From assembly GCF_030013595.1 (NCBI RefSeq), contig NZ_CP122768.1: a stretch of DNA of 64,000 nt; one strand, given 5' to 3'. Below are positions 27,210-28,536 of this stretch, in pieces. Position 1 is the first letter of the stretch. Every line of letters starts with the position of its first letter. The position numbers and the translations under genes are program-made. The DNA is from Escherichia coli. GTDB lineage: Bacteria > Pseudomonadota > Gammaproteobacteria > Enterobacterales > Enterobacteriaceae. The notes beneath the pieces were generated by a model. It ran no database searches and was not told the origin of the DNA. It was given only the letters and a program-made list of their open reading frames with translations.

Positions 27210-27962
27210 TCAGATTCCTTGGTGAGTAAGAATTTTACTTTCTGAACTCCTCTGAGAGTATTGACTTGGAGAAACACCAAAATAACGTCTAAATACATAA
27301 GTAAAGTATGAGACACTGGCATAACCACAGACCTTAGCTACTTTACTAATAGGATAACAACGAGTGCTGAGTAAATATTCAGCCATTTGCATCCTCTCAT
27401 CAAGTATGATCTTACTGAATGATACCCCCTCTTCTTTCAATTTCCTCTTTAGTAAACTTTCGCTGAGATATAATCTTGATGATATATCCTTAAGACGCCA
27501 TGGTGCAGATAAATCCGTATGAATAATCGTTTTAACTTTAGCCCCTGTGCTTTTCAAACATCCAAACAGAAATACTCCAAATTGTTTTTCAGAAGAAAAT
27601 GCAGAGAGACATGTAAAAGCAATAGACTCATCAAAAATTTCTATGTATTCAGCACAGTGATTAGCCCAACTAATTAACCCTTTAATTAAACTGAAGTCAG
27701 CAAAGTTTATTTTTAAATAAGATGGATATTCCCTATAATCAGAAATATCCCTTAAGTTATTAGCTTTCAAATAGCGACTAATAAACTCAGCGCCAAAATC
27801 CGCCACTATCACTCTTTCAGGATATGTCAGGAAAAAATCTCTAGAGCTAGAGTCGACAAGTACAGATGAACCTCTCTCCAGAAACACACTCTCTTTTCCG
27901 AAATAAACATCAAAGGACTCCAAAATCAATATAACTGAACATGTAGTTGCCATATCATCCAC
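27210..27962 (-). CDS. AraC/XylS-family transcriptional regulator (prophage cargo)
   Basis: 250 aa; C-terminal AraC-type double HTH; AT-rich gene with ~580 bp AT-rich upstream region. Confidence 0.75.
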   Translation of the reverse strand: MDDMATTCSVILILESFDVYFGKESVFLERGSSVLVDSSSRDFFLTYPERVIVADFGAEFISRYLKANNLRDISDYREYPSYLKINFADFSLIKGLISWANHCAEYIEIFDESIAFTCLSAFSSEKQFGVFLFGCLKSTGAKVKTIIHTDLSAPWRLKDISSRLYLSESLLKRKLKEEGVSFSKIILDERMQMAEYLLSTRCYPISKVAKVCGYASVSYFTYVFRRYFGVSPSQYSQRSSESKILTHQGI

Positions 27963-28536
27963 CCAATTTAACTGAAACCAGGATGAAGTATATGCATATA
28001 AAGTTCACTTTGCCAAACTTCAGTATAAAAAACCACATAAAAAATAGGGCGTGATAAAAAATACCGTAACAATAAAGCAAAGGATTATAAATTCCGTTAC
28101 AGTTACAAATGATACTCAAGAAACAATTCCTTAGGAAAAACTTATTTACAGCCAATAAGTAAGACACTTATATGATATCAAGTTTTCATAAAACATAACT
28201 AGGCTAAATAGCTGCGCCTAATACCGCTACACTTTTGCCAGCCCATGTTTGCCTCCGGGTATTGACCCCTTCTCTACGCAACTTCAGTTCCCACCACCAA
28301 CTTTGCGGCAGCTTTGTAGGATCAATGTCTAAAAGAATAATGGTGACCGATAAGAAAACGACTGAATAACTGCAGATTTTCGCTCAAAACCTTCCTGTCA
28401 GATCCATAGCGAATCAAGTGCTGAATGTCACAGTATCGAACAGAAAACAGTGACGATCTAACCTTCAAGAATATTCTACGATTGTTCTGTTTAGGAAAAG
28501 CAAGGCGGGAAGTCGGGAGATAAGTCATTGATAAAG

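Follow-up and report, generated by a model that had tools for sequence, protein, structure and literature searches.

A lambda-like prophage beside the bio operon of Escherichia coli, located within a 64,000-nucleotide stretch of DNA (contig NZ_CP122768.1; hereafter "the window"), carries an intact gene for an AraC-type transcriptional regulator on the minus strand at 27210..27953. We identify this gene as patE. The regulator as such is already known, and its effects on acid resistance and on the enterocyte effacement locus (LEE) have been published. In the reading proposed here, to which we assign a probability of roughly 0.87, PatE would act as a stationary-phase activator of the acid-resistance genes of its host. 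Upstream of the gene lies a mosaic of patE-linked DNA, insertion sequence (IS) debris and captured host chromosome that is organized like an old prophage attachment junction at the tRNA gene serU.

Identity, Family and Fold of the Regulator

The encoded protein is identical to ECs_0287 of O157:H7 Sakai at 246 of 247 residues. The two proteins differ at one residue, Y73 here against C73 in Sakai, which falls into the N-terminal domain; hence, the DNA-binding domain is the same as that of the O157 protein. Prophage Sp1 contains no AraC-type gene other than that for ECs_0287, whose annotation reads just "transcription regulator"; both proteins belong to one 90% cluster of 1788 sequences, in which the name CP-933H is also found. 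PatE has been described as the AraC/XylS regulator encoded by z0321 on OI-8 in a 2024 review (PMC10877973). The near-identity, the shared cluster and the presence of only one AraC-type gene in Sp1 together identify the window gene as patE. An earlier note on this DNA, made from the sequence, had recommended a comparison with PatE-type families, and that comparison ends at PatE itself.

The AraC/XylS family is recognized by a C-terminal region of ~100 amino acids with two helix-turn-helix (HTH) motifs, which is exactly what the protein contains. Pfam places HTH_18 at residues 161-238 (E 1.5e-15) and HTH_AraC at residues 147-186 and 204-235, within a double-HTH DNA-binding domain spanning residues ~140-240. 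The preceding regulatory domain (residues ~1-135) had been called unrecognized in the earlier note. This does not hold, since the NCBIfam equivalog model for YdeO (NF007407) aligns to residues 4-238 (E 4e-43) and PHROG 1450 is matched over the full length (E 4.5e-95); the silence of Pfam on this domain is explained by a sequence too diverged for detection. The YdeO alignment, at full-length coverage, scores 147.7 bits against a curated cut-off of 348, so that PatE is a paralogue or homologue of YdeO, distinct from YdeO itself. In blastp comparisons, homology extends over the full length for YdeO (35%), GadW (33%) and AppY (28%), and over the C-terminal half for GadX (35%) and EnvY. A search of 1.8 billion cluster representatives returned ~20 full-length relatives of PatE at the 50% clustering level, as well as thousands of other proteins that have the HTH domain alone in common with it.

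The structural model is in line with this assignment. The AlphaFold2 prediction, based on a 28-sequence alignment, reached a mean pLDDT (predicted local distance difference test) of 89.4; its top full-length Foldseek matches are Rns, CsvR and ToxT (E ~1e-11), and the DNA-binding domain of GadX superposes on it with a root-mean-square deviation of 1.0 at 43% identity. Judged from the model, the N-terminal domain is predicted to be an ordinary AraC-type regulatory and dimerization domain of beta-barrel and helices, of the kind present in YdeO, GadW and AppY.

Start Codon, Intactness and Selection

The open reading frame (ORF) list gives an intact minus-strand frame at 27210-27962, from which the earlier note had deduced a 250-aa regulator. 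While the AraC-type nature of the protein is borne out, its length is corrected to 247 aa plus stop, with an ATG start at 27953. The GTG at 27962, which would begin the 250-aa version, falls within the Shine-Dalgarno (SD) sequence GGTGG (27963-27959, minus strand), 5 nt 5' of the ATG; the N-terminus MATTCSVI, with its motif M-x-x-x-C-S-V-I, aligns with MSLVCSVI of YdeO, MTHVCSVI of GadW and MDYVCSVV of AppY; and, as seen in the alignment, both the SD sequence and the ATG are kept in the paralogues. These three observations fix the length at 247 aa. RefSeq annotates identical alleles with the same start.

With 750 nt of open frame in DNA of 35% GC, HTH domains and a PHROG match, the ORF is not a chance feature. 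The GC content amounts to 35.2% in patE, 37.5% in the upstream DNA (27963-28536) and 51.9% in the window. All six loci compared—the window, avian pathogenic E. coli (APEC) O78, O157 SS17, Sakai, strain E5 and phage mEp332—have intact alleles, and comparison with an 84%-identical homologue, whose C-terminus is 3 residues shorter, yields a synonymous divergence (dS) of 0.49 and a nonsynonymous divergence (dN) of 0.08, i.e., a dN/dS of 0.17. Decay into a pseudogene in relatives, which had been named beforehand as the outcome that would speak against a working regulator, is not what is found; patE is under purifying selection.

Function in the Host and Competing Explanations

What PatE does is known from O157, where it activates gadB, gadC, gadE and hdeAB, with a cis element of hdeA at -132 to -45, and lowers the expression of six LEE genes; a patE null mutant is reported to show reduced acid-resistance gene expression (PMC10877973). 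In a published transcriptome, the stationary-phase signal of O157 patE was log2 12.4 in the wild type versus 10.0 in an rpoS mutant, and a second published transcriptome found the gene induced at the stationary transition. High, RpoS-dependent stationary-phase expression implies that patE is not silent in O157.

On this basis, the following mechanism is proposed. In the prophage, patE would be transcribed from its own promoter ~30 nt 5' of the ATG, mainly in stationary phase and in an RpoS-dependent manner. The AraC-type cupin-plus-helix N-terminal domain probably mediates dimerization, and the double HTH would bind host promoters at AT-rich sites. By activating gadE, gadBC and hdeAB, as in O157, PatE would lead to more glutamate-dependent acid resistance, and in LEE-positive hosts it would also reduce expression of genes for type III secretion. 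Because the DNA-binding domain is identical to that of O157 PatE, the same targets are expected in the present host; nearly all E. coli, as far as is known, have the acid fitness island, and from both points together we infer the same circuit. Consequently, lysogens of the prophage, as well as of live phages with the patE module, would become more acid-resistant. The suggestion of the earlier note that the gene encodes a cross-talk regulator acting on the host is, thus, sustained insofar as the gene is patE, a reported activator of host acid resistance in O157, and it carries over to this strain as a probable role.

The identity, intactness, purifying selection and fold of PatE, its conserved promoter and SD sequence, and its genomic context are directly supported by the present analysis, while its targets and RpoS dependence are drawn from the literature. 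Some points weigh against the proposed function. The targets were reported for O157 and are cited from reviews, not from this strain; depending on the pathotype of the host, the LEE branch may be irrelevant here; and the promoter is a consensus match from a scan that gave 7 sites, compared with 8.3 expected in shuffled sequence.

Among other explanations, one would be compatible with PatE acting on host acid resistance: a fatty acid might be bound between the two domains, as in Rns and ToxT, so that gut lipids, and not just the expression level, would control the activity of the regulator. The likeness of PatE to ToxT and Rns consists in overall fold similarity seen by Foldseek, with an N-domain identity of just 8-17% across the Rns/CsvR/ToxT/ExsA class, whose targets also differ; such ligand gating appears unlikely.

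According to a second explanation, which follows the architecture argument of the earlier note, patE would be silent cargo, with H-NS on the AT-rich gene and leader keeping it off, so that the host would ordinarily see no effect. DNA of such composition is a typical H-NS substrate, and patE (35% GC) with its proximal 241 bp (29% GC) is indeed AT-rich in a window of 52% GC. However, the O157 transcript levels and their rise at the stationary transition, together with the lowered acid-resistance gene expression reported for the null mutant, speak against a gene that is kept off; moreover, just ~250 of the 580 bp claimed for the leader are patE-linked AT-rich DNA. We therefore regard full silencing as improbable; partial H-NS repression may occur in exponential phase. 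Finally, the idea that PatE controls phage genes, e.g., those for tail fibres or lysis, rather than host genes can draw on the co-directionality of patE with the late tail genes and on paralogues located between Q and the holin gene, but it is very hard to reconcile with the location of the gene, which lies past a fossil att junction in the dispensable b region and has IS debris on its flanks, with retention in the 10.6-kb Sp1 remnant that lacks head genes and most tail genes, and with reported targets that are chromosomal.

The Upstream Mosaic and Its Expression Signals

The ~580 bp of AT-rich, non-coding DNA described in the earlier note do exist, with 37.5% GC over 574 bp, yet they are a mosaic, more than half of which consists of an IS end and yodB-serU DNA. 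As read from the sequence, the actual patE leader is ~250 bp (27954..28203, minus strand), and the remainder of the 574 bp is an IS scar plus captured host DNA. Within the leader, 27963-28203 (241 bp, 29% GC) aligns throughout with the DNA 5' of the 84% homologue, despite the location of the latter in another phage slot. A putative promoter of sigma-70/sigma-S-like type, TTGGCA-18 nt-TATACT, is located at 28016-27987 (minus strand). Its hexamers and the SD sequence are retained in the 84%, 55% and 53% paralogues (L018 7740-8024, L019 7780-8024 and L009 5700-6024, respectively, against window 27930-28210), and it is this conservation, not the scan, that supports the predicted promoter. As these paralogues keep the signals in their slot between Q and the holin gene, the family seems to bring its expression signals along when it moves.

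Next to the leader lies a 56-bp terminal fragment of an IS630-family element (28204..28259; 54% GC), which matches at 93% the 3' end of an IS630-family transposase pseudogene and the adjacent element end on plasmid pESC818, with the match covering the last 55 bp of the element. This remnant forms the joint between the patE leader and a captured host spacer, namely 277 bp of the yodB-serU intergenic region (28260..28536; 41.5% GC), which is ~97% identical to the serU locus of K-12 and of most E. coli genomes listed. Beyond it lie 62 nt of tRNA-Ser serU (28537..28598, minus strand), which reach from its 3' end back to the anticodon stem, as aligned with K-12 serU; at this stem, homology of the window to serU stops. 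The fragment is truncated and too short to be called by ARAGORN. A 114-aa ORF at 28322-28666 (minus strand) was dismissed because it spans the tRNA fragment and host spacer.

A permissive Rfam scan of 25.5-30.5 kb yielded nothing regulatory in the patE leader; it returned weak tmRNA/tRNA-like matches from the serU fragment as well as IS009 inside tfa. When 27.9-29.5 kb was searched for repeats, all that turned up were short ones, probably due to chance. Altogether, the gene-free DNA 5' of patE extends to the tfa stop at 29458, ~1.5 kb in total.

A Probable Fossil serU Attachment Junction

The order of these pieces has counterparts in known prophages. A lambdoid prophage of O111:H8 located at serU shows the succession yodB, spacer, partial serU, b region (with nleC), tail fibres, lom and J, and the record of phage SerU-LTIIb has, between yodB and the phage arm, an annotated pseudo tRNA-Ser of 62 nt; the 115 bp of this phage that come next match window 28600-28714 at 90%. 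The 62-nt 3' part of serU is the att core of serU-integrating lambdoid phages. By sequence comparison, 28260-28714 is structured as the attR junction of a serU-integrating lambdoid prophage, comprising the host flank, the att core and a phage arm (28599..28714). This arm constitutes the first 115 bp of an 859-bp AT-rich, gene-free stretch. Today, this junction is enclosed within the b region of a prophage located at the lambda att site, with patE on the host side of the junction.

The simplest reading of this arrangement is imprecise excision: it suggests that the patE module is a fossil of specialized transduction, in which an ancestral serU prophage would have excised imprecisely and taken along adjoining DNA including patE, and whose core may still recombine. 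We put this forward tentatively, at somewhat less than even odds; no intermediate of such an excision was found. On the patE side of the 62-nt core, the window prophage and O157 Sp1 are 99% identical, but on its phage side their DNA is unrelated, which indicates that the core has been a crossover point at least once. The retained core may, therefore, still serve for recombination or as a secondary attachment site and so transfer patE from one lambdoid phage to another.

Prophage Setting and Neighbourhood

The window includes uvrB, the moa genes and the bio operon, then ybhB, followed by the lambda-like prophage. Reading inward, the order is bioA-ybhB-attR, IS fragments, patE, gene-free DNA, tfa (29458-30039), stf, lom and J, which confirms that patE resides in the prophage b region, between attR with its IS fragments and the tail genes of a lambdoid prophage, as had been stated in the earlier note. 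The attR of the resident prophage lies beside ybhB at approximately 26190..26210; the sequence agttagtataaaaaag, read directly there, we take to be the lambda att core. Homology to free lambdoid phage genomes starts at 26194, and the annotation of phage DN1 includes an attR.

Directly downstream of patE are ISEc48-like transposase fragments of the IS3 family (26437..27168), seen as ORFs and annotated in RefSeq as partial transposase and integrase-core pseudogenes. In the Sakai record, the corresponding DNA bears the label "ISEc48 Family: IS3 partial"; there, the fragment starts 5 nt past the patE stop (Sakai 309845-309849; compare window 27169-27209). No intrinsic terminator was found downstream of patE. 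Given its b-region position beyond tfa, its conserved promoter-like site and its GC content of 35%, patE has the attributes of a phage moron.

Several side observations concern the surrounding DNA. The 859 bp between the serU core and tfa (28599-29457; 31% GC) contain no convincing gene and are conserved at 99% in phages PhiR70_1, ev099 and mEp332. They include a strongly hydrophobic 33-aa ORF at 29091-29192 (plus strand), MKIQSKLIVLLNIIIAFILFELLAQKFGLSTLF, with no obvious SD sequence, and a terminator-like hairpin of good intrinsic type with a T-run at 29341-29375 (plus strand). The ORF annotated in PhiR70_1 is another one, of 37 aa, whose counterpart in the window is 28946-29059; none of the small ORFs of this stretch has a PHROG match. 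A strong IS009 match (RF02111; 227.7 bits, gathering threshold 117) at 29498-29696 (minus strand) is wholly within tfa. Further away, a molybdenum cofactor riboswitch (RF01055, 103 bits) at 16638-16782 (minus strand) is probably the one upstream of the moa operon, judging by position, and is expected in this part of the chromosome; adjacent genes for tRNA-Thr (TGT) and tRNA-Asn (GTT) are found in the prophage at 56080-56235 (minus strand).

Distribution and Relatives

At least 80% of 27210-28600 is present in 541 of 5426 complete E. coli genomes (~10%), and the whole context of 26100-29500 beside ybhB in 155 genomes. The gene is found at att-lambda beside bio in the window, APEC O78 and strain E5, and at thrW in O157 Sp1. 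The genomes of the viable phages mEp332, PhiR70_1 and ev099 carry it in the same b-region layout, with 97.6-98.4% protein identity. O157:H7 SS17 has the module 27210-28600 (1.39 kb) at 100% coverage and 99.2% identity, with identical junctions. Sp1 of O157, thus, has in common with the window not only PatE but the entire 1.39-kb module with the IS630 end, the yodB-serU spacer and the serU fragment, and also the downstream IS3-family fragment. The two differ in their setting: here, an apparently complete lambda-like prophage occupies att-lambda, whereas in O157 a 10.6-kb remnant is located at thrW.

Within the wider family, YdeO, GadW and GadX, encoded on the K-12 chromosome, and AppY of the DLP12 prophage all regulate the gadE/AR2 system, as PatE is reported to do. 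YdeO is under the control of EvgAS, whereas PatE is reported to be RpoS-dependent. Paralogues of 84%, 55%, 53% and 47% identity sit between the antiterminator gene Q and the holin gene; they are of the family and length of PatE, but occupy this moron slot instead of the b region.

An additional AraC-like protein of O157, WP_000261909 (37% identity to PatE), is encoded downstream of Q; between its gene and that for the holin come tRNA genes and nanS-p. The gene adjoins tRNA genes of the ileZ-argN-argO type, lies near a PerC/Pch gene, and is present in two copies in most O157:H7 genomes listed. By these traits it may correspond to the published PsrA/PsrB description. According to the 2024 review, psrA (z1789) belongs to OI-50. 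In neither Sakai 1540001-1590000 nor EDL933 1626001-1676000 does the potC-potB prophage (Sp6/CP-933N, with espK), where psrA would be expected, hold an annotated AraC gene, and tblastn gave no match for a patE homologue in the Sakai Sp6 locus. The Psr-like AraC gene of O157 is located elsewhere, e.g., in strain PV15-279 at about 1.17 Mb. As candidates for PsrA/B, the 53% and 47% paralogues were rejected: for the 53% paralogue, the listed O157:H7 genomes give patE as best match and contain no full-length copy.

Significance

For work on patE regulation, the short leader means that about 250 bp are enough to study. The embedded serU attR junction is a concrete, datable trace of the entry of a host-regulating moron into a phage genome; it is a mildly new point, which would account both for the odd "leader" and for how patE became phage-borne. 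Furthermore, patE is not confined to prophage remnants of enterohaemorrhagic E. coli, but is also carried by apparently complete prophages at the bio locus, including that of avian pathogenic O78, and by plaque-forming phages. This makes the conversion of E. coli to higher acid resistance by lysogeny directly testable.
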